Position numbers and translations under genes: made by a program. A stretch of 64,000 nucleotides of DNA from a virus, in the IMG/VR virus record IMGVR_UViG_3300017917_004222, positions 83,840-147,839 of that record. The stretch is one strand, 5' to 3'. The notes below the pieces were generated by a model. That model searched no databases, was not told the DNA's origin, and was given only the letters and a program-made list of their open reading frames with translations. Shown here piece after piece: positions 16,909-55,878 of this stretch. How positions within the stretch are numbered: position 1 is the first letter of the stretch; each line of letters starts with the position of its first letter.

Positions 16909-17600
16909 GTTGGATCCTTTGCTCGCATGCAGTTATTATTGTGCCATCTTTCAAGATTTGATTTCCCGCCAACAGTCTTGCCACAATGCTGGCAGACATA
17001 TTTTGGTTTTGGTGCACGAAGTTTCATTAGGGTGGCATCGGTGTGTGTTTTTCCGAAAAACGAATTATCGACCCCAGTTTTTCTTACACCGTAAAAATGA
17101 TTGTTCACCCCGGATTGATGTGGTCTTTTCTCTCCCTTGCGTCGCTGGTTGATCGCAATCATGTTATTGCGTCTAATGGCTTTTTTGTCATCGCCTTCAC
17201 TTTGGGCGCGGGCTTGTGCAGAGATTTTTAACTTTTCAATCCATTCGTCGGTGAATTTTCTGCCTTTAAGAGATGAGTTTAACGACTCTCTAAGGTTCTG
17301 ATAAACTCGAGAACCAACTTTGTATCTGTCTTGTTTGGTGTTATTGCTATGCATCATTTTCTTGCATGCGTACACCATTTTTCTTTTAGGTTCCCCAGTT
17401 ACCATCTTAGTAAGCAACCAGTGAGCAATAAAATGCTCGCGAGCTGTTAACCTAACCAAATTCTCTGTATTATCGCTACCACCAAGTGACTTGGGGATGA
17501 TGTGATGGCACTCGGAATAACACTCGTTGGGCAACTGACGTCCTTGTGCTCGGACAATTATTTGGTAGTACCACTGAGTATATTTGTTATCACTGAACAT
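16896..17600 (-). mobile_element. HNH homing endonuclease with NUMOD3-like C-terminal motifs
   Basis: 'ECHHIIPKSLGGSD..NLVRLTAREHFIAHWLL' and 'NSFFGKTHT'. AT-rich, with TAAATA 7 nt upstream of the ATG. Confidence 0.85.
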
Positions 17601-17950: not shown

Positions 17951-18493
17951 ATGACACTGCGTTCTTTCTCCCACCCTGGTCTGGTTGATTACAAGTATGA
18001 CACTGAAAAGCGTCAGGTCATCAGCTACAAGGTCAATGCCGCCGGTCAACCCCGCGCCTGGAGCTTTGACAACAGTCGCATCGCTCGCATGGGCCTGCGC
18101 ACTCGCAGCGGCAGCACGGTGAACATCCGTCGGGACCAGATCGAGCAACACCTTGTTCCGGAAGCTCGCAAAACCACTGTGACCCGCATTGGCAGCGCCA
18201 CCCAGCGCCAGATCAACGAAGCCCGCGACATCCGTGCCAAGATCAACTCTGGTGCCACTGTGACCAACAACCTGGACTTGCTCAAGCCCGACTTTGAATA
18301 CGTGCTGTTCAGCGTGAAAAACCAGTGCAGCCAGTATTTCTTCCGTGGCACTTCGGTGGGCGATGCTCTGCGCATGTTTGCACGTCGTGGCGAACACATC
18401 GCGCCCAGCGACATTCGCATCCTCAACACCCGCACCAACACGGTGACGGAACTGCAAACCCAGGTGATCACCACCTACGTGCTGGCTGCGTGA
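17951..18493 (+). CDS. Hypothetical early protein
   Basis: 180 aa, AAGGA RBS, strongly biased codon usage. Confidence 0.7.
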   Translation: MTLRSFSHPGLVDYKYDTEKRQVISYKVNAAGQPRAWSFDNSRIARMGLRTRSGSTVNIRRDQIEQHLVPEARKTTVTRIGSATQRQINEARDIRAKINSGATVTNNLDLLKPDFEYVLFSVKNQCSQYFFRGTSVGDALRMFARRGEHIAPSDIRILNTRTNTVTELQTQVITTYVLAA

Positions 18494-18496
18494 TAC

Positions 18497-18523
18497 ACAC
18501 TGCCCGGAGATCCCGGGCAGTGT
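18497..18523 (+). terminator. Stem-loop after early gene
   Basis: 11-bp stem acactgcccgg/ccgggcagtgt, no clear U tract. Confidence 0.5.
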
Positions 18524-18529
18524 CACGAC

Positions 18530-18558
18530 TTGACCCAAAATGGCAGGTGTGCTATAAT
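18530..18558 (+). promoter_or_regulatory. sigma70-type early promoter
   Basis: TTGACC-17 nt-TATAAT with TGn extension. Confidence 0.8.
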
Positions 18559-18588
18559 TACAGTGTTGACAACAAGGAGCCATCAAAC

Positions 18589-19731
18589 ATGAAAAGCACT
18601 GCAACAGTTCGAGCCCTGAATCCCCGCAATCCGGACACCAAATACATGGGCAACGAGCCCACTTGGGAAGTCCAGCCCACTGCGGGCCGCATCACTGCCA
18701 TGAGCCGTGCCTTCAACTGGTACAACTACTTCTACGGCAAAAAGGATGCCAAGGACTTTGTGGCAGCTTGGTTGGACAGCCAGGGTCGCACTGCAGATGC
18801 CAAGAAGATTCGTGCACTGTCTGACAGCCAGGTGCGAGCCACCACTGGCTGGTTGTGCCGCATGGTCATGGTGGGTCTGGAACTGACTGAAGCGGAAAAG
18901 GTCAAGCTGTTGGCATCTGTGTCTGAACTCCTGATCAAGCACGATGAGCCCGCTGCAGAGGCTGAAGTGGTCAGCACCGAACCCGAAACACCGCGAGTGA
19001 CCATTCAGGATCGCCTGCGTGAAAAGGTCAGTGAGTGCCTGGGCGAGCTGGACGGCTTGTTTGATGACTTTTTGGCGGCAGGCGCCAAGATGAGTGCAGA
19101 TTACAAGCCCATTGCCACCATCCGTGGCATGAACGTGGCTCCGCAAATGATCAGCATGATCAGCGATCGTTGGAAGCAACGCCTGGCTGAATTCGAAGCG
19201 GTGCAAGCGGGCAAAGATGCCCAACTGGCGGAAGGCTATGGCAACTGGAGCAAGATCCAGGTGCGCAACATTGTCAAGTTCTGCGAGACTGTGGTGTCTG
19301 ACTGCGGCGCATACGTGCAGATCAAGAAGGTGGAACGCAAGCCCCGCAAGGTCAAGCCCATCACTCCGGAAAAACAAGCCAGCCGATTCAAGATCTGCGC
19401 TGAGTTTGCCGAACTCAAGCTCCGCAGCCTGCCAGCTGCACAGTTGGTGGACAAGACCGAAGCCTGGTTGTATGACAGCAAAAAGCGCAAGTTGATCCAC
19501 TTGGTGGCTGACGAATACACCAAGACCTTCACTGTGAAAAACAACGCGGTGATTGGGTTCAGCACCACCGAAACTCAGCAGAAGACGCTGCGCAAACCTG
19601 CAGAAACGCTCAAATCCATCATGACCAGTGGCAAGCCCAGCTGCCGCAAGGTGTTCAAAGACATCAAGGCCACTGAAACTGCCTGGAACGGGCGTGGCAC
19701 TGAGAATCTGCTGGTGCTGCGAGTCTGGTAA
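18589..19731 (+). CDS. Hypothetical early protein (380 aa)
   Basis: AAGGAG RBS before ATG 18589; the ORF-track extension to 18325 is unlikely. Confidence 0.75.
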   Translation: MKSTATVRALNPRNPDTKYMGNEPTWEVQPTAGRITAMSRAFNWYNYFYGKKDAKDFVAAWLDSQGRTADAKKIRALSDSQVRATTGWLCRMVMVGLELTEAEKVKLLASVSELLIKHDEPAAEAEVVSTEPETPRVTIQDRLREKVSECLGELDGLFDDFLAAGAKMSADYKPIATIRGMNVAPQMISMISDRWKQRLAEFEAVQAGKDAQLAEGYGNWSKIQVRNIVKFCETVVSDCGAYVQIKKVERKPRKVKPITPEKQASRFKICAEFAELKLRSLPAAQLVDKTEAWLYDSKKRKLIHLVADEYTKTFTVKNNAVIGFSTTETQQKTLRKPAETLKSIMTSGKPSCRKVFKDIKATETAWNGRGTENLLVLRVW

Positions 19732-29563: not shown

Positions 29564-30172
29564 ATGAAACCATTTGCAAAATATCTTGCCGAGAGCGAAC
29601 GCACATACGATTACAGGATCAAAATCCTGGGCCGTGTCGGCGACGATCTTGTGCGACAACTCAAACAAAAACTGGCACAATTTGATCCAGTCTCGGTGGG
29701 GGAGTTGAAATCAACTCCCATACAAAAAGTACCTACCGATTTCCCGGGCAGTCAAAACGAAGCAGTGAGCATGTTTGACGTCAAGTTCAAGTATCCTGCA
29801 ATTGACGCACAGATCAAACAGTTGTGGCAGTTGCTGGGCCAGAACCCCAACCACATCATCATGGGCACGGTCAAGCATGCTGAAGGTCTTGCAAAAGAAT
29901 ATCAACGCATCGAAGATGAAAACAAAGACCTGATCAACGATACTGATTACCCCGAACCCGATAGCGAGCAAAAATCACTCAGCCGTGACTATGCTGCAGA
30001 ACCGCATGACCATGTGGTACTAAAAAATGCTTATCGAAGTGATTTCACCATTGCCGGCGGCCGCACTCCTGCTGCCAAAACCACCAATGACATTGCGCAA
30101 GGTACCAAGAGTCCAATGACCAATGTCAAGCGTCCAGCCAAGCCAGCTACTGGCCGTAACCCAAGAGGATAA
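29564..30172 (+). CDS. Hypothetical head-associated protein
   Basis: N-terminus MKPFAKYLAE resembles the T4 capsid-targeting sequence; late promoter at 29541. Confidence 0.65.
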   Translation: MKPFAKYLAESERTYDYRIKILGRVGDDLVRQLKQKLAQFDPVSVGELKSTPIQKVPTDFPGSQNEAVSMFDVKFKYPAIDAQIKQLWQLLGQNPNHIIMGTVKHAEGLAKEYQRIEDENKDLINDTDYPEPDSEQKSLSRDYAAEPHDHVVLKNAYRSDFTIAGGRTPAAKTTNDIAQGTKSPMTNVKRPAKPATGRNPRG

Positions 30173-30177
30173 ACCAA

Positions 30178-32682
30178 ATGTCATTTTTTTACGATCTCAA
30201 CAAAAAACTACAGCAAGTGCTGGAATCCCCCAAGAGCGAGCACAAACAACTGAACGAGGGCTGGAAGGGCGGCGCAGCTGGTGCTGGCGTGGGTGCAGTG
30301 GCTGGCGGGCCAGTTGGTGCTGCCATTGGCTCGGTGCTGGGCGACAAAATTGGCGATGAGCTGGGCGAAACTGGCTACAGCGCCCGGGCAGCCAGTGCTG
30401 GACGAGACATTGGCAAACCCGGCAAGAACTTTGCCAAAATTGCCAAAAGTGCTGGCGAGCGCTACGGCTCTAAAGAACGCGGCGAAGCTGTGGCAGGCGC
30501 TGTGCTCAAGAAGCTGCGAGCCAAAAACGAAGGTGTTGATTCTGACGCTGGCGATGACAACCGAGTGTCCACAGTGGTCCGACTGTTGAAGCGATTGCTG
30601 ACTTCGGAAGCACTACGTGACGCCTACGACATTGGCGAAGATGATGTGTTCCAAATTGAAGAGCTGGCAGCTGCATTGGAAAACAATGACATGGAAGCAG
30701 CACAAGACGCATGGAGCGTGTTTGATGTGAACGAGCTGGACAATGCATTGGACAGTTATGTGGCCGACAATGGGCTCGAAACCGGTTACTTGTTTGACCT
30801 ACTGGGCCACAATGTGAACGAAGGCTCCAAAGTTCCAACAGACTGGATGGGAGTCCCTACTAAGCTGGGCAAAAATGACAAGAAGCCAATCCAGTTCCCA
30901 GCAGGGTATGATGAATATATCAAGCAGGGTGCCAAGCATGGATTCCAAGATGATCCCAACAATCCTCTGCGTAAACGAGTCAAAAAAGCAGGCGTAGCAG
31001 AAGGCCGCCATACTCAATCCAACGCACTGGAACTGAACCCTGACCTCCGGGCCCAGGCCAACAAGCCCACAGTGGCCGGCCGCATTGGCAGCGCAGCCAA
31101 GCGGGTGGCAAACGCCATCACTGGTGGCAGCGATGAAGACGCCAAGAATCGTTTGCTGAACCGCATGGGCGGCCGCCGCACTCCCCTGGCACGTGATGAC
31201 ATGTCCGAAGCCACTAAAGAAATCCCGGGCGGTCGTCGTCACACATCTGAGCCAGGTGGCTACGGTCGCAAGGACGACGACGAAGCCCCCAAGGCAAAAA
31301 CTCAGCGTGGTCGTGGTCGTCCCAAGAAGGGCGGCGACAGCGAAACAGGTGAAGTCAAGAAGTACGACTGGAGCGCATTTGGTGCAACTGGCAAGGATGT
31401 CAAGTTGCCCAAGCACTCGGGTACCGTTACCAAGCACAAAATGAGCGACGAAGAACCCAAAAAGAAAGTCAAAGAAGCCACCAAGGAAATCCCAGGTGGA
31501 CGTCGTCACACTGCTGATGCAGGCGGCTATGGTCGCCGAGACGACGAAGATGACAAGGGCAAGCGAGTCGCAGCTCAAGTCAAACGTGGCCGTGGTCGTC
31601 CCAAGAAGGGCGGCGATAGCGAAACAGGCGAAGTCAAGAAATATGACTGGAGCGCATTTGGCGCCACAGGCAAAGAAGTCAAACTGCCCAAGCACAAGGG
31701 CAATGTTACTCGGCACAAGATGGACGAGGCTGTGAGTGAAGATGATCTTGCAGTTCTTGAACGACTCATGGACCAGGCGTTTGCCGAAGGCAACACTGCC
31801 CTAGGCAATGATATTCAGGGTGTGATCGAGCGCATCCAGGGCGATCAAGACGAAGGCCAATACGATGACGAGCCGGTGAACGAAAAAGCTGTGAGTAAAA
31901 AGCAGCAACGGTTCATGGGCATGGTGCATGCTGCACAAAAAGGTGAAAAGCCTGCGTCAAAAGAAGTGGCCAAAGTGGCCAAGGAAATGCCCAAGAAGGA
32001 AGCTGAAAAGTTTGCCAAGACCAAACAAAAAGGCCTGCCCGAGAAAAAACAAGCCACTGACGAAACATCAGACAGCAAGCCAGCCAAAGGCGGCATGACT
32101 TTTGGCAAGGGCATTTATGACAGCATGAATCGTGAGCTAGAGAGCATGATTGCTGAAAGCATGAGTGTTAACTTGAGCATGAATGATGACGGCCATGGCG
32201 GTCCACGCCGCAGCCTCACAGTGACTGCCACTGACGACGATGCAACCAAGCTGGCTGAACTACTGAAAATGGCTGGCATTGGCGACGAATCATCTGCTGA
32301 GTCAAGTGACTGTGGCTGCGACGAGCTTGAGGAAAACCAAGCCGATTGGCCAACTGATGCTGAAACCAGCAATGATCCGTTCCAGTACTCGGGAGGACTC
32401 AATGGTCCCAAGAGCACAGGACAGACCACTGGTGCTCCGTTCAACCGTCAACCGCAGCGCCAGGGCGCCATGGTAGACGAAGAGGACGAATTGGCTCGCA
32501 TGATGGAAATGGCTGGTGTCAAGAAAGGCAGCAAGCCCGACTATGTTGACCTTGACAAAGACGGCAACAAAACCGAGCCCATGAAGCAAGCGGCCAAAGA
32601 CGCCAAGGAAGACAGTGCAGATCAAGTGGACGAAGGCATCCTCGGCGCCACTCGCAATCTGTGGAAAACCTATCAAGGCTGA
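30178..32682 (+). CDS. Modular, highly charged putative internal-head polyprotein
   Basis: Modules bounded by LNE/VNE/GVAE/MSE/VKE. Contains a glycine zipper, a duplicated RGRGRPKK module, 'KAVSKKQQRFMGMVHA' and an EF-hand-like 'DLDKDGN'. Confidence 0.7.
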   Translation: MSFFYDLNKKLQQVLESPKSEHKQLNEGWKGGAAGAGVGAVAGGPVGAAIGSVLGDKIGDELGETGYSARAASAGRDIGKPGKNFAKIAKSAGERYGSKERGEAVAGAVLKKLRAKNEGVDSDAGDDNRVSTVVRLLKRLLTSEALRDAYDIGEDDVFQIEELAAALENNDMEAAQDAWSVFDVNELDNALDSYVADNGLETGYLFDLLGHNVNEGSKVPTDWMGVPTKLGKNDKKPIQFPAGYDEYIKQGAKHGFQDDPNNPLRKRVKKAGVAEGRHTQSNALELNPDLRAQANKPTVAGRIGSAAKRVANAITGGSDEDAKNRLLNRMGGRRTPLARDDMSEATKEIPGGRRHTSEPGGYGRKDDDEAPKAKTQRGRGRPKKGGDSETGEVKKYDWSAFGATGKDVKLPKHSGTVTKHKMSDEEPKKKVKEATKEIPGGRRHTADAGGYGRRDDEDDKGKRVAAQVKRGRGRPKKGGDSETGEVKKYDWSAFGATGKEVKLPKHKGNVTRHKMDEAVSEDDLAVLERLMDQAFAEGNTALGNDIQGVIERIQGDQDEGQYDDEPVNEKAVSKKQQRFMGMVHAAQKGEKPASKEVAKVAKEMPKKEAEKFAKTKQKGLPEKKQATDETSDSKPAKGGMTFGKGIYDSMNRELESMIAESMSVNLSMNDDGHGGPRRSLTVTATDDDATKLAELLKMAGIGDESSAESSDCGCDELEENQADWPTDAETSNDPFQYSGGLNGPKSTGQTTGAPFNRQPQRQGAMVDEEDELARMMEMAGVKKGSKPDYVDLDKDGNKTEPMKQAAKDAKEDSADQVDEGILGATRNLWKTYQG
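31207..31728 (+). repeat. Tandem duplication of an ~85-aa module with an AT-hook-like RGRGRPKK motif
   Basis: 31207-31452 and 31474-31728 both encode EATKEIPGGRRHT..RGRGRPKKGGDSETGEVKKYDWSAFGATGK.VKLPKH. Confidence 0.9.
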
Positions 32683-32684
32683 TC

Positions 32685-34328
32685 ATGAAATCATTTCGCG
32701 AACATCTAAGAGAGACACAAGAAACATTTGATCGCCCGGCAACGGGCGATGACTTCGCCATCAACATTCGTGAAGAATGCTTGATCGAAACCTATGTGGT
32801 CGACGAGACAGCCGACGGCATTGTGCTGCATGCTGACGAGCGCATGATGCGATTGCTAGAATCTTACGGTTACGTGCAAGAAGGTGGCGTCAAGGAAATG
32901 TTGATTGGTGCTGCCGAGCGCATGACACTTGATGAGTTCATTGATGCCTACGGCAGCCAGTTTGGACCCGACGAAGCAGAAGAATTCTGGCACACTGTGA
33001 ACGACGAAAATGAAGTTGAACAGTCTGGTCCGGGACACTGGATGCACGAGGAAACTTTTGTTGCGGCAAACAGTGATGGTATATCACACCAGGATGCTGG
33101 CGAGTACGATTACGAAGGCGACATGGCCAAGGATGACTTGAGCACAATCATTCGTGCTGCTCGTCGACTCACAGGCATGCTGGACGACAACGAAAACATG
33201 CCCGAGTGGGTGCAGAGCAAAATCAACAAAGCCGCTGACTATGTGGACACAGCCGCCGATTACATCGAGTCCAACAAAGAACGCGGTGTCATGGAAGGCG
33301 GTGATCCTGCAACTTACCGGGCAAAAGCCCAAGAGGCACACGCCAAATATCTCAAGTACGAAGACTTGGTTGATCAGGAGTTGAGAAAACTAGGTGAGCG
33401 TCTGCCTCGGTCCTGGGATGCCAACGCCTTTCAAAACAAGTTGTCCAGCGACCCCAAGTATGCCCAGGCCTTGAAGTATTACAAACTCAGCGAAAAATTT
33501 GGCGGCCTAGCCGTTCGTTATAAAGAACTGTCCAAGAAGCGGGGCATGGCAGAAGGTCAGTTGGCCAACCCAGACAACCAAGACTCGCCTGTGGCCCGAG
33601 CAATCACACACCGCATCCTTATGCAACACACTGGCCTGTTGGCCAAATACGGCCCCGAGCGGGTCATGGACGCTGTGGATGAAGTGGCTGATTTTGTCGG
33701 CGATGTAGAAGAAATTGGGTCAAGCGATGTGTCGGGCTGGGTGCGTCATGTGGAACAGATGCTGACCAACATGCCCGACAGCTTGGATGAACAATATGGC
33801 GACGAGTTTGACAACGAAGAGGACGAAGAAGACGAAGCAAACGGATTCTACGTGGTAATTGCCAGCGAAACCAATGGCGTGTTTATTGGCCAAGTGATCA
33901 AGGACGGCAGCAAGTGGCGCGAAATGGGCGGGGTTGGTAAACAGCCCTACAGCTGGGGCGGAAACTACATGGGCTATCTTTCCCCGGATGACGTGATCAG
34001 CTGGATACGTAAAGACTACCGCAATGCTGAGGTGGACGGCCCGTTCTCAAGCGAGGACGAAGCACAACAAGCTGCTGACAATTTGAGCGAAGCCAAATAC
34101 CAAGGACGTGAAGTTCCACTAGGCAAACCCATGCAGGGCGATGTCAAGAAGAGCAAAGTCTACGTCCGCGGACCCAAGGGCAACGTGGTCAAGGTCAACT
34201 TTGGCGACCCCAACATGCGCATCAAGAAAAGCAACCCCGAGCGTCGCAAGAACTTCCGTGCGCGCCACAACTGCGACAATCCAGGTCCACGTTGGAAAGC
34301 ACGCTACTGGAGTTGCCGCGCCTGGTAA
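32685..34328 (+). CDS. Modular putative internal-head polyprotein
   Basis: Starts MKSFREHLRE. Modules are bounded by VQE/GVME/GMAE/LDE/LSE, ending in a 'KVNFGDPNMRIK..ARYWSCRAW' module. Confidence 0.7.
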   Translation: MKSFREHLRETQETFDRPATGDDFAINIREECLIETYVVDETADGIVLHADERMMRLLESYGYVQEGGVKEMLIGAAERMTLDEFIDAYGSQFGPDEAEEFWHTVNDENEVEQSGPGHWMHEETFVAANSDGISHQDAGEYDYEGDMAKDDLSTIIRAARRLTGMLDDNENMPEWVQSKINKAADYVDTAADYIESNKERGVMEGGDPATYRAKAQEAHAKYLKYEDLVDQELRKLGERLPRSWDANAFQNKLSSDPKYAQALKYYKLSEKFGGLAVRYKELSKKRGMAEGQLANPDNQDSPVARAITHRILMQHTGLLAKYGPERVMDAVDEVADFVGDVEEIGSSDVSGWVRHVEQMLTNMPDSLDEQYGDEFDNEEDEEDEANGFYVVIASETNGVFIGQVIKDGSKWREMGGVGKQPYSWGGNYMGYLSPDDVISWIRKDYRNAEVDGPFSSEDEAQQAADNLSEAKYQGREVPLGKPMQGDVKKSKVYVRGPKGNVVKVNFGDPNMRIKKSNPERRKNFRARHNCDNPGPRWKARYWSCRAW

Positions 34329-34799: not shown

Positions 34800-35177
34800 A
34801 TGGTGCGAGCAAGAGAATTTTTAGGCGAAGAAAAGGTTGGAAAAATTTCCAAACGACTGCAATCGGCCACCCGCGGTCTCAACAAGTTTAGAGACCGCTC
34901 ATTCTCTGACCGCGTGTACGAACTGAACCGTGTGATGATGGCAGCCGCATGCAACGACGGTGATGATTTTGCCCATCCAGTTGACGCTGAATCCTGGGCT
35001 GGACGCCACGACATTGCGGCACCTTATACCGAGGTTGAGCAACGCATGCTGGAAAAAGCATACAAGGCTGTTGGATCTTTGTATCAAGACATCAACCACG
35101 GCAACATGGACAGTGAAGAGCACCCAGCTGTGAACAAAACAAGTCCTATAAATAGTTTCAAAGGATACCCAAGATGA
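34800..35177 (+). CDS. Hypothetical head-associated protein
   Basis: AAGGAG RBS; N-terminus MVRAREFLGE. Confidence 0.65.
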   Translation: MVRAREFLGEEKVGKISKRLQSATRGLNKFRDRSFSDRVYELNRVMMAAACNDGDDFAHPVDAESWAGRHDIAAPYTEVEQRMLEKAYKAVGSLYQDINHGNMDSEEHPAVNKTSPINSFKGYPR

Positions 35178-35559: not shown

Positions 35560-37050
35560 ATGGCCATTCAGAATTTCTTTACCAGTCGCGACAACAAACT
35601 TGACGGCAACACGTATGTGGGGCAGTTGGGTCGCCTTTGGTACAACCCCGATACCAACAGCATATATGCCAGCGATGGCAGCACCGTGGGCGGAATCCCA
35701 GTAGCGCTGGCCACCAACGCCAACATCTTGGCCAACAATATCACTGTGAGCACAGTGACGTCCACCAGTGGCAACATCACCGTCAACGGCAACTTGGTCA
35801 TCAATGGCAACATTTCGCCAGCCACCGACGTCAAGATTGGCGGCATCAAGGCCGGCCCAGGCGCCAACATATCAAATGATGGCACACTCACGATTGATAC
35901 CACTGGCTTGCCACTCAGCTTTGGCAACTTCACAGCCAACAACAACATACTCACTATTGTCAACGTAGACGAGGACATGATTCTCGAAACTTCGGGCAAT
36001 GCCGAAATACAATTGGTGGGCAACATCGGGTTCTACAAACCCAACGGTGGCGGAGTTCCTGAACCCAGTGCAAAATATTTCTTTGCCCGAGACGATGGGC
36101 AGATTACTATCTTGGTTCCTGTCGAAGACCCATTTTTGGGCGCAGTGGAGATCATAGGATCTTCCACAGGCAATGTTATATCGCCTGGCGCGCCTGGCGC
36201 CATGCTGCATCTCACTGGCAATCCTAGTGTACCAACTCGCCTGTACATGGACGGCAACAACAGCTATGCCAGTATTGTGGGCCGCCGTTGGAACGGAAAT
36301 GTAGCCACGCCCACACAGGTTTTGGCCGGCCAAGATGTGTTGCGTATCAATGCCACCGCAGCCACTGATGCAGGCAGCAGCAATGTGGGCAACGTGGCAT
36401 TTGCTCAAGTGCGTATGACAGCCTTGGAAACCCAAACTGCCGCAGCACAGGGTTCACAAATAGTGTTTACAGTGACTCCGGTGGGGCAGCCTGCTACCAG
36501 TCGTGTGGATGTGGCCAACATCACAGTGGCTGATGGAGTATGGGCTACTAAGTTTACCACCACAGGCAATGTGTCAGCGGCCAATGCCATAATCTCGGGC
36601 AACATTTCGGTTGCCGGCAGCATTCTAGGCAATGCAGTGACCACCACCGCCACAATTGGGACTGGCAACATCACCACATTGAATGTGAGCGGCAACGCCA
36701 CTGTGGGCGGCAACATTCGTTACAACATTGCCAACAACAACGCCACGGTGACTCAGGCCACCAGCAAGGCCACTGCAGTGACCTGCAACGGCAGGACTGG
36801 CCAAATCACCACCAGCAACAGCTCAATCGCCAAGGGCGAAGCAATTACATTCACTGTGAACAACAGTTACATCACAGCAGCAACCGACGTTCCTGTTGTG
36901 GTTTTGCAGTCTGGTGCCACCGCCAACAGTTACTCAGTGTCGGTCACGCGGGTTCAGCCCGGCAGTTTTGCCATCACATTGGTCAACAACGGCACAGGCC
37001 CTTTGTCTGATACCATTGTCATCAACTTTGCTGTGATCAAGGTGAGCTAA
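35560..37050 (+). CDS. Virion structural/fibre-like protein
   Basis: 'GRLWYNPDTNSIYASDGSTVGG' N-terminus, GNI repeats and a C-terminal 'TVTQATSK.T.VT.NGRTGQITT' domain. Confidence 0.7.
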   Translation: MAIQNFFTSRDNKLDGNTYVGQLGRLWYNPDTNSIYASDGSTVGGIPVALATNANILANNITVSTVTSTSGNITVNGNLVINGNISPATDVKIGGIKAGPGANISNDGTLTIDTTGLPLSFGNFTANNNILTIVNVDEDMILETSGNAEIQLVGNIGFYKPNGGGVPEPSAKYFFARDDGQITILVPVEDPFLGAVEIIGSSTGNVISPGAPGAMLHLTGNPSVPTRLYMDGNNSYASIVGRRWNGNVATPTQVLAGQDVLRINATAATDAGSSNVGNVAFAQVRMTALETQTAAAQGSQIVFTVTPVGQPATSRVDVANITVADGVWATKFTTTGNVSAANAIISGNISVAGSILGNAVTTTATIGTGNITTLNVSGNATVGGNIRYNIANNNATVTQATSKATAVTCNGRTGQITTSNSSIAKGEAITFTVNNSYITAATDVPVVVLQSGATANSYSVSVTRVQPGSFAITLVNNGTGPLSDTIVINFAVIKVS

Positions 37051-37094
37051 ATTGCTCACTGGGCAGCAGCCCTAGCACACGTTTGGAGATTCTC

Positions 37095-38681
37095 ATGATC
37101 GCTAACAAAGCCAGTTCACTAGAAACGGTATTGGTCAAAACCCCACACCGTCGTGAAACCTATACAGACCAAGAATTGATGGAGTTTGCCCGATGTGCAG
37201 ACCCAGTCAACGGCCCCATGTATTTCATGGACCACTACTTTCACATTCAGCATCCCACACGTGGCAAGATGCTGTATCAGCCGTTTCCGTACCAAAAAAA
37301 GCTGATTGAAACCTATCACCGTTATCGCTACAGCATCAGTCTCATGCCGCGACAGACTGGTAAATCAACATCAGCTGCAGGCTATCTGTTGTGGTACGCC
37401 ATGTTTGTGCCCGACAGCACCATTCTCATTGCGGCACACAAGTACACAGGTTCACAAGAAATCATGCAGCGCATTCGATTTGCCTACGAGCTGTGCCCCA
37501 ACCACATACGTGCAGGTTGTACCAGTTACAACAAAGGCAGCTTGGAATTTGAGAACGGCAGTCGTATTGTGTCGGCCACCACAACAGAAAACACTGGTCG
37601 TGGTATGAGTATTTCGCTGTTGTACGCTGACGAATTTGCGTTTGTGCGACCCACCATTGCGCAAGAGTTCTGGACTTCTATTTCGCCCACGCTGGCCACA
37701 GGTGGTAAGGCCATCATCACATCAACTCCCAACAGTGACGAAGACAAGTTTGCTGAGATTTGGAAAAGCGCCAACAAGTGTCTTGACGAAAACGGCAACA
37801 CCACTGAACTGGGCATCAACGGCTTCAAGGCTTATCGTGCTTACTGGAATGAACATCCGGATCGTGATGAAAAGTGGGCTGCAGAGCAGCGGGCTCAGCT
37901 GGGCGAAGAACGTTTTCGTCGTGAGATGGATTGCGAATTTGTTATCAATGATGAGACCTTGATTTCGCCTATCAAACTGTTGGATCTTGAGGGCGTGGAA
38001 CCTCGATACAAAACCGGACAGGTGCGCTGGTACAAACCATTGTCCAAGGACCGGATGTACATTGTGGCCCTGGATCCCAGCCTGGGCACTGGCGGCGACC
38101 CAGCAGCCATACAAGTGTTTGAAGCTGAAACAACCGAACAGGTGGCCGAGTGGAAACACAATCGAACTGACATTCCCACGCAGATTCGCATCATGGCCGA
38201 CATAGTGAAAGAAATCCACGACGTGGTCAAGGACAGCAAAAAAATCTACTACAGTGTGGAAAACAATACCCTGGGCGAAGCTGCACTGATATCTATTGCT
38301 GAGTACGGGGAAGAAAGCATTCCGGGATACTTTCTAAGTGACAACTCGGTCACAGGCTCGGGAACTCAACGATTCCGCAAAGGCTTTAACACCACCCACA
38401 AGGCCAAGGTCACTGCCTGTAACAAGTTCAAGATTCTTGTGGAATCGGGGCGTATGAAACTGCACAGCAAGCCCTTGATCAGCGAACTCAAAAACTTCGT
38501 GGCCAAGGGCAACAGTTTTGCTGCCAAACCTGGCGAGACTGACGACCTTGTGATGGCCAGCCTCTTGATTATTCGCATGTTGATGTTGTTGCAAACTTAC
38601 CATGCCGAATTGGACCAGCACATCAAAGATCACAATGATGTCATTGTGGAACCTTTTCCCTTTATATCTGTCATGCGCTAA
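37095..38681 (+). CDS. gp17: Terminase large subunit
   Basis: Walker A 'PRQTGKST', Walker B 'LLYADEFAF', 'ITSTPN', nuclease 'VALDPSLG..DDLVMA'. Confidence 0.95.
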   Translation: MIANKASSLETVLVKTPHRRETYTDQELMEFARCADPVNGPMYFMDHYFHIQHPTRGKMLYQPFPYQKKLIETYHRYRYSISLMPRQTGKSTSAAGYLLWYAMFVPDSTILIAAHKYTGSQEIMQRIRFAYELCPNHIRAGCTSYNKGSLEFENGSRIVSATTTENTGRGMSISLLYADEFAFVRPTIAQEFWTSISPTLATGGKAIITSTPNSDEDKFAEIWKSANKCLDENGNTTELGINGFKAYRAYWNEHPDRDEKWAAEQRAQLGEERFRREMDCEFVINDETLISPIKLLDLEGVEPRYKTGQVRWYKPLSKDRMYIVALDPSLGTGGDPAAIQVFEAETTEQVAEWKHNRTDIPTQIRIMADIVKEIHDVVKDSKKIYYSVENNTLGEAALISIAEYGEESIPGYFLSDNSVTGSGTQRFRKGFNTTHKAKVTACNKFKILVESGRMKLHSKPLISELKNFVAKGNSFAAKPGETDDLVMASLLIIRMLMLLQTYHAELDQHIKDHNDVIVEPFPFISVMR

Positions 38682-38691
38682 ATAACTGACT

Positions 38692-41600
38692 ATGGCAACA
38701 AGCAACAATATTGGCAAAGATCTCGTGGATTTGCTGGCCACCCACAACTTTGATGTTGAAACATCCAGCGCCAAAAACCCATCGGCCACCCCCGACGAAG
38801 CCACAGTGTTCAAGTTTGATTACGTGAGTCAACACAATCGCAACTACGGCACTGCAGTTATCGTGATTGGTGACGACAATGACCTCATTTTGTTCTACGG
38901 TGACAATCTGGGACGGGGCATGGAACCCGAGGACAAGGACGAATGGTTTGCGTTCATGAAAGAGCTCAAGGATTTTTCAGTACGCCACAACTTCAAAACA
39001 TTCAGCCCCAAAAACCTCAATCAACTCAAGCACACCATGCAAGGCATGGCAGCCATCAAAGAAGGCTTGTTTGAAGGCTACTATGGATCTCGACGGGTCA
39101 GCTACATGGGTCCGGCTACCGAAGCACGACTGGTGATCAATCACAATCGGCTGATTGGCGAAAATGACAAGCGATTCCGTTATATCGAAAGCCTGTTTAT
39201 CGAGACTGTGGAGGGCGAACGATTCCGCTTGCCGTTCAAGCACATGGCCGGAGCTCGAGCCATGCTGGAGCATGTGCGCCAAGGTGGTCGTCCGTATGAC
39301 ATTCGGGGCCAGCACATTGCTGATGTTGTGAACGAGATGTCGGTGTTGTCACGTTTTCGACGTGCGCAACAAGGACGAGTGTTTGAGGGAGTGACACGGG
39401 AGTTGGTAGAGCAGGCCAACCAGTATTACCAGTCGTTGCACACCAATCTCAAGCACATGTCCAGCAATCGCGGGTACCGTTCGTATTTTGAATCCTGGAC
39501 TCCGGCCGACATTGGGCCAGAAGAATCCCTAGTGGAAGATCTGCGAACCATGTTTGTGGAACAAACCATAGACAGCAGAATTGAACAAGCATTGCCTACC
39601 CTGGCCAAGCTAAAAGGAAAAACAATGAAAGAAGCTGATATTTTTGAATCATGGGCCAACCGGTTGACCGAAGGCACTTGGGCACTGCCCGACAATCCCG
39701 AAGCACAAGAAAAGCTCAATCAACTCATGAGCAGTGAGCTGATTGTGGGGCCAGATGCAACCAATGCCACAGAACTGTTGTACGATGTTGTGGGCGACGA
39801 TGAGCTGTATGACATCCTTGACGATTTGGCCGCAAGGAACCCTAGAGCCAACATCTGGGACGATTCTGATGTGATTCAGCGCATGCAAGAACTAGGCATT
39901 CAGCTGCCCAACGGCGATGAAGAACCCAACACCAACATGGATATGCCAGCGCCTGGCGACGCTGCCGAGGTCAGAGAAGGCGACAACCTGGCGACATTTG
40001 TCGAAGGCAGCTGCAATCACACCCGGGAAGGCGAATACTGCCCCGAGCATGGACTCATGGAATGCGGCATGTACGAAAGCATGGGCGGCACAGTGGCTGG
40101 CGCTGTTGCTACTGGAGTGCCGCATGCGTCAGAAGGTGTGGAGGAAGGCTCCGCAAAGTATATCAAGCGCAGCGTGGCAGGTTGGGGCTGGTACGACAAA
40201 GACAAGCCTAAAGATGTGGTGAATAAAGTCAAGGGTCAAGACACAGATGTGCTAAAAAGGCTGCATGAACCTGACACCAAAAAAGGCAAGGGTTCTCCTG
40301 CTGAACTACAACAAAAAGCCATCAGTCGTGAGTTGAAGAGGCGTGGTAAGCAAGGTGTAGGGGAAGCTGAATATGATTCTAGAAAACCCTATGGGGTTCG
40401 TTATAGAGTATTTGCCGGGCGTGACGGCAGATTAACTACTAAAGAATTTTGGACTACCTCGTCGGAAAAATTAAAAAAGGCCGTTGCCAAAATTGAAGCC
40501 TTGGGCAACTTCTACGAAATTGACGGATATAGCTATCCCAAAGAACAGCCGGGCGTGTCAGAAGAATATACGCAAGTTCACGAACTAAGTAAAGACACTC
40601 TGCAATCATATCGTGACCGGACAAAAGAAAAGCGAGCTGCATACAACGCTGCAATCCGGCACGCCGGCGATCCGCCACTGGGCATGACATCTACCCACTC
40701 TAGTGATGAAGTAGACCGGTGGATTAAAAAGTATGATAAAATGGGCGGCGGTATGAAAAAGGCTGCCAACAGAATCAAAAATTTAGATAAGCAAGGCGTG
40801 TCGGAAACCAATGTTGCAAAATACCGAGACCTGGGCGCTACTGCAGACACTACCCACTTTGTCAAGAACGTCACCACAGGCAAGATTGTGAGTCCACATC
40901 GCAGCCGTCAAGATGCCGAAGACGCCCTGGTTGCGTTGCAGCGTCGCCCTGACGGCAACGAATACAAGATTGTTCGTGCCAGAAAAGATGTGACCGAAGG
41001 TGATGATCGTGGCGATTATCACTCTACTGCCCGCGCTGCCGAACAAGCCACAAGGCAAGCCAAGGACCCTGCAGGCCACCGAAAGGCAGCAGGTTTGCAT
41101 GACCGTGCAGCAACTTATGCGCTATCGGCCGGTCACGACAGCAGTGTTGTCCACGATCACCAAATGGCAGCACGGGAACACACCCGAGCAGCCCGAGGAT
41201 TGACTAAAAGCTCGTTGGAAGAAGCCGGCGGAGCAAAACAATACAATGAATTCAAGCGTGAATGGCGTGCAAAACACGGTGCTGATGCCAAAGTTCCCGG
41301 CTATGATAGCCGAGAATATACATCCTACTGCTATCGTCAACTTGATAAAAAGCATGGTGTGTCAGAAACCCGAGCTGATCCCACCAGCACCTGGGTGGTG
41401 TATGACGGCAAAAAAGTTCAGCGTTTCAAAACCCACGCTGGTGCCAAGGCCTATGCTGAAAAGCACGGCGGCAAAGTTGCAAGCTCGGCGCACTATGCCG
41501 ATCGCATCCAAAAGTCCGAAGTAAAGGAAGGCTTGGACATCGAAGCCGCTCGTGAACGACTTGCATCACTGCAGAGGGACCTGAAGGCAGTGACCGGCAA

Positions 41601-42159
41601 TTATCCCGGCGATGATCGTAATCGCATGATCCTGCGCAGGCAAATATTTGATCTGAAGGCACAAATCAAATCAGCAGGCAGCAAGAAATCTGAGGTGAAG
41701 GAAGGCCAACTCAACGAATATCTAGTGAACGAAGGAGAACCGTTTTCTGAGGTATTGAATCTGAATGTGTTTATGGACACCAGCCCAGATGGTCAAGTAG
41801 GGATGGATCATGATCCTCAATGGCAACAACTAATGGCAAAATATCAACCCATTGCCAAACAGTTAGAGCAACAAATACAAGCACTTGACGAGTACGAACT
41901 CTCGCCCAAAGAAGTAGACGCAATTCACAATGTTTGGTATGATGGATCAGACGCCTATGATGACATGGAAGTTGATGTTCTAGCCAGGCTCTACGACCAG
42001 CAAATCAAGTTGGTCAAACGAATGATAACCGTTAGATTGAGAAAGCAAGGTGTGTCTGAAGACTCAACTGACCCCATGGACCATCGTGGTGCTGTGACCG
42101 ACAGCTTCCGTGAAAGTCTGGATCGCATAAAAACTCTGGCACAGATTCGCAAGAGCTAA
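38692..42159 (+). CDS. Large modular putative internal-head polyprotein (1155 aa) with an array of GVxE-linked cassettes
   Basis: TAAATA at 38679. An N-terminal region of ~480 aa is followed by nine unrelated modules separated by (K/Q)GVxE, DVTE, SLEE or EVKE linkers. Confidence 0.75.
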   Translation: MATSNNIGKDLVDLLATHNFDVETSSAKNPSATPDEATVFKFDYVSQHNRNYGTAVIVIGDDNDLILFYGDNLGRGMEPEDKDEWFAFMKELKDFSVRHNFKTFSPKNLNQLKHTMQGMAAIKEGLFEGYYGSRRVSYMGPATEARLVINHNRLIGENDKRFRYIESLFIETVEGERFRLPFKHMAGARAMLEHVRQGGRPYDIRGQHIADVVNEMSVLSRFRRAQQGRVFEGVTRELVEQANQYYQSLHTNLKHMSSNRGYRSYFESWTPADIGPEESLVEDLRTMFVEQTIDSRIEQALPTLAKLKGKTMKEADIFESWANRLTEGTWALPDNPEAQEKLNQLMSSELIVGPDATNATELLYDVVGDDELYDILDDLAARNPRANIWDDSDVIQRMQELGIQLPNGDEEPNTNMDMPAPGDAAEVREGDNLATFVEGSCNHTREGEYCPEHGLMECGMYESMGGTVAGAVATGVPHASEGVEEGSAKYIKRSVAGWGWYDKDKPKDVVNKVKGQDTDVLKRLHEPDTKKGKGSPAELQQKAISRELKRRGKQGVGEAEYDSRKPYGVRYRVFAGRDGRLTTKEFWTTSSEKLKKAVAKIEALGNFYEIDGYSYPKEQPGVSEEYTQVHELSKDTLQSYRDRTKEKRAAYNAAIRHAGDPPLGMTSTHSSDEVDRWIKKYDKMGGGMKKAANRIKNLDKQGVSETNVAKYRDLGATADTTHFVKNVTTGKIVSPHRSRQDAEDALVALQRRPDGNEYKIVRARKDVTEGDDRGDYHSTARAAEQATRQAKDPAGHRKAAGLHDRAATYALSAGHDSSVVHDHQMAAREHTRAARGLTKSSLEEAGGAKQYNEFKREWRAKHGADAKVPGYDSREYTSYCYRQLDKKHGVSETRADPTSTWVVYDGKKVQRFKTHAGAKAYAEKHGGKVASSAHYADRIQKSEVKEGLDIEAARERLASLQRDLKAVTGNYPGDDRNRMILRRQIFDLKAQIKSAGSKKSEVKEGQLNEYLVNEGEPFSEVLNLNVFMDTSPDGQVGMDHDPQWQQLMAKYQPIAKQLEQQIQALDEYELSPKEVDAIHNVWYDGSDAYDDMEVDVLARLYDQQIKLVKRMITVRLRKQGVSEDSTDPMDHRGAVTDSFRESLDRIKTLAQIRKS

Positions 42160-42342: not shown

Positions 42343-43380
42343 ATGGCATCCTTAGCAGAAATTCGCGCAAGACTTCAGGCAGCTGAAAACAAACAAGGTG
42401 GGCAATCCACCGGTGGTGACAACTCAATCTATCCGCACTGGAACATGGAAGAAGGGCAAAGTGCAAGCCTGCGATTCCTGCCAGACGGCAACAGCAAAAA
42501 CACATTCTTCTGGGTGGAACGAGCCATGATTCGTCTCCCATTCAACGGCATCAAGGGCGAAATGGACTCCAAGCAAGTCATGGTCCAAGTGCCATGTGTG
42601 GAGATGTGGAACGAAACCTGTCCTATCCTGACCGAAGTTCGCACCTGGTTCAAAGACAAGAGTCTGGAAGACATGGGTCGCAAATACTGGAAAAAGCGCA
42701 GCTACCTCATGCAGGGCTTTGTGCGTCAAAACCCCATCGCAGATGACGCCACCAAGGCACCTGAAAATCCAATCCGTCGCTTCATCATGGGTCCTCAGAT
42801 CTTTACCCTGATCAAGAGTGCACTGATGGATCCCGAACTGGAAGAACTGCCCACTGACTACATGCGTGGTCTGGACTTCCGCATTGCCAAGACCAGCAAG
42901 GGCGGCTATGCTGACTACAACACCAGCCAGTGGGCTCGCAAAGAGTCGGCCCTGACCGAAGCTGAACAGGCAGCGATCGAAACTCATGGTCTCTACGACC
43001 TCAGCACTTTCTTGCCCAAGCGACCTGGCGAAGTGGAACTGCGTGTGATCAAGGAAATGTTCGAAGCCAGCGTGGACGGTCAACCCTATGACCCTGATCG
43101 TTGGGCACAATACTTCCGTCCGCCTGGCGTGGCAGCACCTGGTGGCGCAGCCAGCGGCAGCGCTGATGTGGACGAAGACTCGGCTCGTGTCCCAGCTCGT
43201 GCACCTGCACCACGTCCTGCACCTGCTCCGGCTCCTGCAGCAGAGTCGGCACCCTGGGAAGGCGAAGATGACACCGCAGTGGCCACAGCACCTGTTGCTG
43301 CCCCTGCTCCTGCAGCCCGCGCAGGTGGCCAGAATGCACAAGACATCTTGGCCATGATCCGCAGCCGTCAACAAAAGTAA
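42343..43380 (+). CDS. gp32: Single-stranded DNA-binding protein
   Basis: 'LRFLPD..CVEMW.E.CPI..KYWKKRSY..GLDFRI.K..GGYADY..S.W' with an acidic Ala/Pro tail; adjacent to uvsX. Confidence 0.9.
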   Translation: MASLAEIRARLQAAENKQGGQSTGGDNSIYPHWNMEEGQSASLRFLPDGNSKNTFFWVERAMIRLPFNGIKGEMDSKQVMVQVPCVEMWNETCPILTEVRTWFKDKSLEDMGRKYWKKRSYLMQGFVRQNPIADDATKAPENPIRRFIMGPQIFTLIKSALMDPELEELPTDYMRGLDFRIAKTSKGGYADYNTSQWARKESALTEAEQAAIETHGLYDLSTFLPKRPGEVELRVIKEMFEASVDGQPYDPDRWAQYFRPPGVAAPGGAASGSADVDEDSARVPARAPAPRPAPAPAPAAESAPWEGEDDTAVATAPVAAPAPAARAGGQNAQDILAMIRSRQQK

Positions 43381-45275: not shown

Positions 45276-45965
45276 ATGTTTATTGACAACAAATACTCAA
45301 AGTGCTACTACAGAATTATCGAAAATAGAAAAAATAACCCATTTGATGGTTACGTTGAGCGCCATCATATTGTTCCAAAAAGTCTTGGCGGTAGCAATAA
45401 AAAAGAAAATATTGTCGCGTTGACAGCAAGAGAACATTTTATCTGTCATCGACTGTTGGTTAAGATGACATCAGGAAGAGATAAGATGAAGATGTCTTAC
45501 GCTATTAGATGCTTAGTCAATCAGGAAAACAAACATCAACAGCGTCACAAAATTAGCGCTCGTACATACGCTTCTATAATTTCAATTACAAAAGATAGTA
45601 TTTCTAAGTATCAAGCTGGCGAAAATAATCCGTATTATGGACGAAAACACTCTGACGAAGTTAAAGCAAAAATGAGAGTAAAGCGAGCACTTCAAGAGCC
45701 GCCCCTACTAGGTAAAACTCACTCTGCAGAAACAAAAGAAAAACTTCGCCTAGCAAACAAGAAGCAATTTCAAGATCCGGCACAAACTGAGATGCGCAAA
45801 AAATGCACATTGGAGCAAATGAAAGATCCTTTGCGACGACACGCCGCTGGTAATGGCAAGCGCGGGAAAAAATGGTATTATTGTCCTGTGACAAAAAACT
45901 GTTCTACCTTTTTTCCTGACAACGTTCCACCAGGATATATAGAAGGAAGGATTATTAAAAAATGA
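45276..45965 (+). mobile_element. HNH homing endonuclease with NUMOD3-like motifs
   Basis: 'ERHHIVPKSLGGSN..LTAREHFICHRLL', 'NPYYGRKHS', 'GKTHSAETKEK'. AT-rich, TATAAATA at 45251. Confidence 0.85.
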
Positions 45966-55254: not shown

Positions 55255-55878
55255 TTACTTGTCCCGTCTTCTTGCTTCGCTAATCTTCAGTTTGGTTTCG
55301 GGCGACAGTTTCGACCCTAATCTTGCAGCCCTTATTTTTTCGCCAAATCCCTCGGGCTTGGGTTTCCTCATCCGGTGTTTAGTTTCTTCAGACTTTGGTC
55401 TGCCTTTACCTGCCTTGCTGATTTTAAGCTTCTGATCCTCGCTGAGTGGCTTGCCCTTTTTAGCTTCGCTTATTTTTCGCTTTGTCTCTTCACTCATCGG
55501 TCCTCGTTTCTTCCCCAAGTTATACGTATTCCCTCTGAGAAAATCAGACCTTGCAGCAGAAACTAAGCGTCTTACAGTTTCGTATTGCCTTCCTGATATT
55601 TCTCTTTCCTGGTTGCTACTGGAACGCCTAAACGAGTTGAATGCAAAGCACATCTTGTAATAAGATTGCCCTGAAGTCATCTTGGTTAGTAAATAATGAC
55701 AAAGAAAGTGTTCCTTCGCAGTTAACCTGACCAAGTTTTCTTTTGAGTCTGATCCGCCAAGGCTCTTAGGAACAATGTGGTGGTTTTCTGTGTAGGCATC
55801 AGAAACAGTCCGTTGTCTTGCATTTGAGACAATGTTCATGTACCATCTCGTATACTTGTTTTCAATAAACGTTGACAT
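55255..55878 (-). mobile_element. HNH homing endonuclease with NUMOD3 repeats
   Basis: 'ENHHIVPKSLGGSD..LTAKEHFLCHYLL' and repeated 'SEETKRKISEA'. Confidence 0.85.

Follow-up and report, generated by a model that had tools for sequence, protein, structure and literature searches.

A candidate head-cargo polyprotein built from exchangeable mini-modules in an uncultured phage

What is encoded by a long phage gene that lies between the terminase and the replication genes, and whose product keeps its two ends while its interior changes from one relative to the next? We examined this question in a stretch of 64,000 nucleotides (nt), referred to here as the window, that spans positions 83,840 to 147,839 of the IMG/VR virus record IMGVR_UViG_3300017917_004222. 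The gene, which we call the cargo gene, occupies positions 38692 to 42159 of the window. A sequence-only reading had described its product as nine unrelated mini-proteins chained behind an N-terminal region by GVxE linkers resembling prohead-protease sites, and had proposed that the chain is packaged, cut inside the prohead and injected into the host. Here we show that the modules are independent evolutionary and structural units with the linker as their exact boundary. We further consider it reasonably probable, though far from settled, that the gene encodes a protease-jointed head-cargo polyprotein, a variant of the internal-protein system of phage T4.

The open reading frame (ORF) runs for 1155 codons on the plus strand and is the sole long frame at that place. 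Recomputation reproduced the ORF, all ten linker Glu codons and all nine module lengths of the sequence-only reading exactly: the linker Glu residues are 485, 558, 624, 705, 769, 844, 892, 946, 1004 and 1123, and the modules measure 73, 66, 81, 64, 75, 48, 54, 58 and 119 amino acids (aa), followed by a 32-aa tail. The modules also differ in character, as had been claimed, with a positive net charge in modules 1-4 and 6-8, a neutral, His/Ala-rich module 5, and a net charge of -13 in the acidic module 9. The gene is laid out as follows, in window coordinates; pLDDT is the predicted local distance difference test score of AlphaFold models.

38692..42159, + strand: cargo polyprotein ORF (P0001), 1155 aa, starting 10 nt past the stop codon of the large terminase (TerL) gene
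38692..39906, + strand: conserved folded N-terminal domain (N-domain), aa 1-405, delimited by AlphaFold and homologues, with no G[VM]xE
39907..40005, + strand: disordered spacer, acidic and Pro-rich, aa 406-438, pLDDT about 31-37
40006..40077, + strand: conserved Cys motif GSCNHTxEGEYCPEHGLMECG, aa 439-462, a possible metal-binding knuckle
40078..40146, + strand: Gly/Ala/Val-rich spacer ending in the linker EGVEE (Glu485)
40147..40365, + strand: module 1, aa 486-558, basic, ends KQGVGE
40366..40563, + strand: module 2, aa 559-624, small alpha/beta unit, ends QPGVSE, in 40 other proteins
40564..40806, + strand: module 3, aa 625-705, two long helices, ends KQGVSE
40807..40998, + strand: module 4, aa 706-769, ends KDVTE, in 20 other proteins
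40999..41223, + strand: module 5, aa 770-844, His/Ala-rich three-helix bundle, ends SSLEE
41224..41367, + strand: module 6, aa 845-892, helical hairpin, ends KHGVSE
41368..41529, + strand: module 7, aa 893-946, small alpha/beta unit, ends KSEVKE, in 41 other proteins
41530..41703, + strand: module 8, aa 947-1004, helical hairpin, ends KSEVKE
41704..42060, + strand: module 9, aa 1005-1123, acidic, helical, ends KQGVSE, in 19 other proteins
42061..42156, + strand: C-terminal tail, aa 1124-1155, DSTDPMDH...LDRIKTLAQIRKS, conserved, a predicted amphipathic helix

The linkers are far more frequent than chance would allow. Residues 481-1155 contain six GVxE against 0.24 expected (six or more in none of 20000 shuffles), five [QKHP]GVxE against 0.05, and two KSEVKE against 0.00025, with KQGVSE as the commonest linker form in this phage. 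The 148-kb contig from which the window is taken has 26 G[VM]xE in 43.8 thousand residues: the cargo ORF accounts for seven, and the ~42,700 residues outside it for 19. The description of the linkers as GVxE-type needs to be loosened, since KDVTE, SSLEE and the two copies of KSEVKE lack the Gly; these four were accepted as boundaries because the same modules have such boundaries in other proteins, and all ten linkers fit [V/L]-x-E. The first candidate site of the protein is AEVRE|G (Glu429), within the spacer of aa 406-438, where homologues have EQG[MV]AE|G.

Searches with the modules show that each recurs on its own, at full length, in other proteins. An exhaustive HMMER search found 382 representative proteins that match residues 482-1125, and in the module-by-module search nearly every match covered one complete query module, which could sit anywhere in a protein of 95-1748 aa and had [K/E]-Q-G-[V/M]-[A/S]-E on both flanks and unrelated sequence past the motif. 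The ends of BLAST alignments cluster on the linker Glu, 28 of them at offset 0, and the commonest start is at -5. Module 1, for example, is found at full length with QGVAE on both flanks in 23 other proteins, some of which are small and begin with a leader like the capsid targeting sequence (CTS) of T4, and the boundaries of module 4 elsewhere read QGVAE|T(K/N)VSKY ... IVRARK-x-GVAE. An unbiased count of 5-mers in 150 proteins that carry such modules (carriers) was topped by QGVAE (187) and GVAEG (163). Numbering residues outward from the candidate cut, with the linker Glu as P1, the linker logo of these carriers has Q at P5 (60%), V (87%) or M (12%) at P3, A at P2 (72%), and G (51%) or A (16%) at P1', for a clade-wide consensus of [K/E]-Q-G-[V/M]-A-E|G and a median spacing between sites of 70 aa.

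The same boundaries appear when close relatives are compared. Among 134 distinct clean insertions of at least 30 aa with well-conserved flanks, 61 start and end exactly after [V/M]xE, against 0.35 expected, and several of the failing examples shown sit at slightly deviant motifs; this clean-flank test replaced an earlier test of insertions and deletions with forced global alignments, which was noisy (102/544 versus 14/544 in the control). In P0121, the closest relative of the cargo region, modules 2-3 are 92% identical and module 3 is joined directly to module 5; modules 4, 7, 8 and 9 are missing, and four other modules are present instead. When 419 motif-bounded segments from 322 proteins were clustered, they fell into 209 families, 156 of them singletons, with varied neighbours; the module 2 family alone has ten different right-hand neighbours in ten adjacent pairs. 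Modules are conserved at 40-80% identity across many phages, yet are present or absent between close relatives. The variation in module number and order between constant ends that the sequence-only reading predicted, with breaks at the linkers, is thus seen across homologues, and full-length colinearity, which would have argued against modularity, is not. In addition, modules of the neighbouring genes at 30178-32682 and 32685-34328 turn up in carriers of the query modules, and therefore several genes use one module pool.

Predicted structures follow the same division. In the AlphaFold model of residues 486-1155 (predicted template modelling score 0.29), compact units coincide with the modules: module 2 is a strand-strand-helix-strand-strand unit, module 5 a three-helix bundle (pLDDT about 88-95), module 7 a small alpha/beta unit (pLDDT 75-96), modules 6 and 8 each form a helical hairpin, and a helical unit and a helix are predicted for module 9 and the tail, respectively. 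All nine internal linker Glu residues fall in coil that separates compact units, eight of them within stretches of pLDDT <50. Folding did not use a global MAFFT alignment of 84 multi-module carriers, in which the modules were misaligned. Structural matches are generic and confined to single modules: Foldseek of the cargo model against the PDB returned nothing at E<=0.001, and for module 5 VIA-align in its wide mode gave a best Z of 10.2 to generic TPR/MIT-like three-helix units, from which no relationship was taken. Because the compact units match the modules and structural matches stay within single modules, the cargo region is not one domain across the linkers, and a continuous fold over them is not seen in the model.

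The chain of modules is carried by a conserved base protein. More than 1100 proteins match the query, all through its first 35-44%; these are 636-1408 aa long, and at 80 IMG/VR loci fetched from at least 580 related ones the gene encodes 508-1175 aa (508 to 1408 aa overall). Common to all homologues are the ~405-aa N-domain (56-80% identity across the 120 homologues listed of the more than 1100), a Cys motif GSCNxTxEGEYCPEHGLxECG and the C-terminal tail, and the shortest homologues consist of these three parts only. The tail sequence LARIKSLALLK/R ends nearly all 80 related genes, and the gene keeps its place, with TerL directly upstream in 61 of 63 related loci and a single-stranded DNA-binding protein (SSB) directly downstream in 51 of 66. 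Variable material sits between the N-domain and the Cys motif in most homologues and between the Cys motif and the tail in the query. The earlier description of a module chain behind an N-terminal region stands, and the architecture proves more complex than it stated, as the Cys motif precedes the cargo here and follows it in most homologues.

AlphaFold predicts the N-domain (residues 1-405) mostly at pLDDT of about 85-93, falling lower near 121-142 and 271-331, and leaves residues 408-485 disordered. The Cys motif, which has three Cys and a conserved His and is invariant across the family, lies within this disordered part; it may bind metal. The N-domain matches phrog_13484, annotated as 'virion structural protein', and this, with a sub-threshold THP2 match, was all that Pfam and PHROGs searches of the whole protein gave. 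Foldseek of the N-domain against the PDB found nothing at E<=0.001, VIA-align wide gave a best Z of 6.6 to generic helical hairpins from which no relationship was taken, and megablast of the cargo gene against deposited phages found no match. Among characterized phages, the N-domain homologue EST35_0206 of Pseudomonas phage PA5oct, a 497-aa protein with no cargo, is annotated as structural, having been detected in virions by electrospray ionization tandem mass spectrometry; the PA5oct study reported 93 virion-associated proteins (PMC7318152). The homologue in Sinorhizobium phage Phosso (976 aa) lacks the linker grammar and has the C-terminus ARLRKLAGI.

A candidate protease for the linker is encoded by the same phage. 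The window is the 3' part of a 147,839-bp contig, and a T4-type head module lies on the same contig ~8 kb before the window, with a portal, a 259-aa acidic protein, a protease, a scaffold-like protein and the major capsid protein. Positions marked G000 below are those of the contig.

G000:72428-74236: portal gene
G000:C1:75359-76000: Peptidase_S77 (gp21-type) prohead protease; PF03420 at 80.8 bits over 75440-75862, and phrog_207 'head maturation protease' at E 6e-57
G000:C1:76013-77110: scaffold-like protein, 365 aa, dense in [VLIM]xE

Two other identities for the cargo gene were rejected: the portal sits elsewhere, in the head module, and a separate scaffold-like gene exists.

The genome thus encodes a gp21-family prohead protease, as is expected of T4-type internal-protein systems. 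In T4, gp21 cuts after the Glu of L/I-X-E, and its relatives in phiKZ and SPN3US after that of S/A-X-E (PMC9026906, PMC10052503). Residue by residue, the linker departs only conservatively from the gp21-type site: P3 is V/M, P2 is unrestricted, P1 is Glu and P1' is Gly/Ala. We read it best as a candidate cut site because P3, P1 and P1' fit, because it takes a disordered position between folds, and because a gp21-type enzyme is encoded. Packaging signals point in the same direction. CTS-like leaders (MKITDVITE, MKINEIITE, MRFTEFISE, MKTLRDYINLIE) begin 34 of 140 Met-starting carriers versus 2 of the contig's 130 ORFs, and both of those ORFs sit in a cluster just upstream of the cargo gene (starts 29564 and 32685). 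They are similar to MKTYQEFIAE, the capsid targeting sequence of T4 (PMC8442874), which gp21 removes once the internal proteins (IPs) are targeted to the core (PMC9026906). The same modules therefore occur behind a T4-like packaging signal in other genes. At the opposite end, the protease (...EVKRLIRDLKI), the scaffold-like protein (...VIDLKRLAGL) and the cargo protein (...LDRIKTLAQIRKS) have similar basic, amphipathic C-termini, a pattern that was defined post hoc and occurs in no other of the contig's 130 ORFs. The three proteins may have a common C-terminal prohead-targeting signal, which we offer as a lead only, and the tail of the cargo protein is a candidate for such a signal.

Taken together, these observations are consistent with the following mechanism. 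Strings of small autonomous modules would be inserted in frame into disordered regions of a base virion protein of PA5oct/Rak2-related jumbo phages, with the recognition site of the phage's own gp21-type prohead protease as the linker. The conserved parts of the precursor would carry the polyprotein into the prohead, where cleavage would yield the N-domain, nine mini-proteins and a tail peptide. More speculatively, the mini-proteins, most of them basic, would remain with the DNA, as IPI*-IPIII* of T4 do, and would be ejected into the host as a fast-changing, early-acting set. A broader proposal is tentative, and we lean against it as it stands: that throughout a clade of abundant uncultured giant phages QGVAE|G is both cut site and in-frame joint, where small folded proteins of any kind could be gained, lost or passed from one carrier gene to another, and the capsid delivers a strain-specific cocktail of dozens of mini-effectors, for anti-defence or host takeover, drawn from hundreds of families.

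A motif found at every module boundary could instead be chiefly an in-frame recombination joint, in a virion protein that stays uncut as beads on a string. Insertions, deletions and module swaps at exactly this motif are what such a joint would produce, and linker codons are indeed biased: in 42 distinct linkers from the 80 related loci, GCG encodes 43% of the linker Ala against a background of 5%, and GGA, GTT and GTC are never used. Silent positions nevertheless vary, both in this gene (GGT/GGC, GTG/GTA, TCA/TCG/TCT) and among the 42 linkers (including GCA/GCG). Furthermore, P2, which is Ala (GCN) in relatives, is Ser in four linkers of this gene (TCA, TCG, TCA, TCT), through three different codons that lie one step from GCN though the genome prefers AGC/AGT for Ser, and V-x-E is kept throughout. 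Since silent sites vary and P2 has moved while V-x-E was kept, selection acts at least on the peptide; the linkers may have changed from Ala to Ser in parallel or in concert, perhaps following the preference of the protease. A pure DNA joint would have no need for a fixed Glu followed by Gly/Ala, and there would be little reason to find it again at the cleavage-type end of CTS-like leaders. We regard an uncut protein with the linker mainly as a joint as unlikely, and note that the roles of joint and cut site are compatible; module exchange was probably helped by linkers that descend with their modules and by short microhomology.

The protein might also be packaged and cut, with pieces that are disposable assembly material or filler (spacers, neutralisers of DNA charge, adjusters of pressure or volume) and are expelled or inert. 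There is precedent in T4 gp22, gp67 and gp68 and in the long propeptides of SPN3US, which are cut to fragments that mostly leave the head (PMC9026906, PMC10052503); most modules here are merely basic, and no module resembles a known enzyme or inhibitor. Compact folded modules that are well conserved across phages and yet come and go between close relatives are, by contrast, typical of accessory conflict genes, and more than 200 segment families are hard to reconcile with bulk properties. A Pfam search of 84 carriers matched DUF6321 in three and DUF5872 in two; one carrier matched Sigma70_r4 (E 1.9e-14) and one the SutA RNAP-binding domain (E 2.4e-05). These last two matches are no more than hints, at the level of whole carriers, of possible host-directed functions. 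On this balance, inert filler seems improbable to us. That the linkers are cut or used by another activity, such as a host or phage protease after ejection or a Gln-acting enzyme, for instance a transglutaminase, we consider very improbable. The conserved Q-G at P5-P4 exceeds the known needs of gp21-type enzymes, and polyvalent proteins are proposed to be processed after delivery (PMC5512222). Against this, the Pfam scan found no peptidase domain in the protein, and the gp21 family, which has a member in the same genome, has as its signature a Glu at P1 and a hydrophobic residue at P3.

Several points weigh against the head-cargo polyprotein itself. The cargo ORF begins with MATSNNIGKDLVDLL, without the ~10-residue leader ending in L/I-x-E that marks a T4 CTS, and therefore the N-domain, the tail or both would need to target the prohead. 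QGVAE is far more specific than L/I-x-E, and the linker may have a reader other than, or besides, the protease. Prohead-protease fragments often leave the head (PMC10052503), so that retention of 5-13 kDa pieces is not assured; in T4, small compact size lets IPI* pass the portal (PMC9026906). The cargo gene adjoins terminase and replication genes, outside the head module, and the cargo model was built on a shallow, partly noisy alignment of short carriers. Searches for function and for cultured relatives gave little. None of the nine modules matched a family or specific fold in Pfam, PHROGs, the ESM Atlas, Foldseek or VIA-align: the cargo region had no Pfam family over the cut-off, and module 9 had no named cluster or relative in the ESM Atlas, with scores of 0.80 or lower. 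The cargo region found no relative in a related-locus search of IMG/VR and no tblastn match in deposited phages, so the modules are in no deposited cultured phage.

The wider genome is consistent with a large T4-like phage. CheckV estimates the 147,839-bp contig to be 43% complete, which suggests a full genome of ~340 kb and hence an uncultured jumbo phage. In the capsid protein it shares 66% identity with Pseudomonas phage PA5oct, Vibrio phage 2.275.O and Sinorhizobium phage Phosso, and 62% with Rak2-like phages. Within the window, the genes closest to the cargo gene are the following.

30178..34328, + strand: two genes (834 and 547 aa) with the same linker grammar, KKAGVAE|G, KERGVME|G and KKRGMAE|G
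37083..38681, + strand: large terminase (TerL) gene, the conserved upstream neighbour
42343..43380, + strand: gp32-like SSB gene, the conserved downstream neighbour, followed by UvsX

The 834-aa ORF at 30178-32682 has a Gly-zipper-like stretch near its N-terminus, a KKAGVAE|G linker, and two tandem copies of a ~85-aa module with the AT-hook-like sequence GRGRPKKGG, each of which begins directly past x-x-E (MSE|ATKEIPGG and VKE|ATKEIPGG). ORFs 29564-30172, 32685-34328 and 34800-35177 start with the T4 CTS-like leaders MKPFAKYLAE, MKSFREHLRE and MVRAREFLGE; together with the terminase genes, these three ORFs look like a head-cargo locus. Right before TerL, a 496-aa ORF at 35560-37050 combines a high content of Thr, Asn and Gly with GN(I/V)-type repeats and has a fibre- or beta-helix-like look; it matches only phrog_18251.

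The sequence-only reading had also given the cargo gene a late-type TAAATA box of its own. This hexamer (38679-38684) shares nucleotides with the TerL stop codon, and with its end 7 nt from the ATG a leader would have almost no space; as the gene's own promoter it is unconvincing. The T4 late-promoter consensus TATAAATA, on the other hand, has four exact sites in the window against 0.23 expected.

22979, - strand: TATAAATA
29034, + strand: TATAAATA
35147..35154, + strand: TATAAATA, the nearest upstream copy on the + strand, likely promoter of an operon of TerL and the cargo gene
45251, + strand: TATAAATA

The three plus-strand sites sit 11 to 19 nt upstream of ORF starts at 29046, 35174 and 45276, which suggests that this phage uses T4-like late transcription. 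With the nearest plus-strand copy at 35147, co-transcription with TerL is suggested, and the cargo gene is more likely read within a late operon than from a promoter of its own.

At least five paralogous ORFs (~210-265 aa) with a common N-terminal motif NKYTxWYYxI... are scattered over the contig and may form a homing endonuclease-like gene family.

16896-17600, - strand: NKYTxWYYxI paralogue
45276-45965, + strand: NKYTxWYYxI paralogue
55255-55878, - strand: NKYTxWYYxI paralogue
G000:8372-9166 and 18262-19044: NKYTxWYYxI paralogues elsewhere on the contig

If the linkers are cut in the prohead, this gene would represent a polyprotein strategy in a tailed phage, whose content differs from one close relative to the next. 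Small protein families by the hundred would then be candidates for capsid delivery in the first minutes of infection, in the class of IPI*, and a promising place to search for new anti-defence or host-takeover factors. The arrangement would also offer a natural design rule, carrier-linker-cargo-linker, for loading several foreign proteins into T4-like capsids, and would explain how internal head proteins diversify in giant phages without disturbing the conserved flanking genes. Even if the pieces are inert, the family clearly illustrates how domains shuffle at a fixed peptide or DNA word.

We found no description in the literature of a phage polyprotein with swappable mini-modules joined by a prohead-protease-type linker, although parts of the arrangement have parallels. 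T-even phages have a polymorphic IP locus. Head proteins of the MuF/SPP1 gp7 type fuse a conserved, head-incorporated carrier domain to variable C-terminal toxin domains; they bear a single cargo, whereas here there are multiple cargoes with protease-type linkers, and a Pfam scan of the cargo protein found no head-protein family, MuF included, at E<=0.01; as the structure searches of the N-domain gave no clear match either, a relationship, if there is one, would be remote. The polyproteins of RNA viruses and African swine fever virus have a repeated short motif cut by a viral protease and are fixed and essential in content and order, whereas content and order here vary between close relatives.

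Among phage systems, the hyperplastic regions of T4-type phages and their PeSL shuffling (PMC2839356, PMC4122927) are similar in that short conserved sequences flank accessory cassettes and mark exchange points. PeSLs, however, are intergenic promoter-terminator motifs that move whole genes, whereas the joint here is in frame and is a candidate protease site. Ejection or inner-body proteins of phiKZ, 201phi2-1 and SPN3US, cut by gp175/gp245 (PMC9026906, PMC10052503), are giant-phage head proteins cleaved after Glu in short motifs, some of them at several sites per precursor, and likewise represent a large protein mass packed with the DNA. In those systems long N-terminal propeptides are removed from one mature protein, and no chain of interchangeable modules with a fixed linker has been reported.

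The nearest concept is that of polyvalent proteins of phages and conjugative elements (Iyer et al. 2017, PMC5512222), which also combine many unrelated domains in one polypeptide, in variable combinations, and are thought to be delivered with the DNA and released by processing. With nine modules and 209 segment families, the cargo protein falls within their range of 2-15 unrelated domains in variable combinations, and a distant structural relative of the N-domain is annotated 'large polyvalent protein-associated domain'. It shows neither the embedded MPTase/peptidase nor the known enzymatic, LPD and DNA-binding domains of that class, as no Pfam family passed the cut-off. In polyvalent proteins the domains are larger and mostly enzymatic or DNA-binding, and the proposed cutter is an embedded zincin-like MPTase (PMC5512222), whereas the modules here are of 48-119 aa and the fixed linker fits a separate prohead protease.

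The T4 internal proteins IPI, IPII, IPIII and Alt (PMC9026906), which form the most similar known system, share with the cargo gene a gp21-family protease and candidate sites with Glu at P1 and an aliphatic P3. The predicted products here are likewise small, mostly basic and compact, of a size like that of IPI*, which is itself the precedent for an ejected anti-restriction protein (PMC9026906). T4 differs in having one cargo per gene behind a 10-aa leader, whereas nine unrelated cargoes are held in one ORF here. The system described here has instead a far more specific linker with a candidate cut site, QGV[A/S]E, and a carrier made of a 405-aa folded domain and a C-terminal tail, with no CTS.

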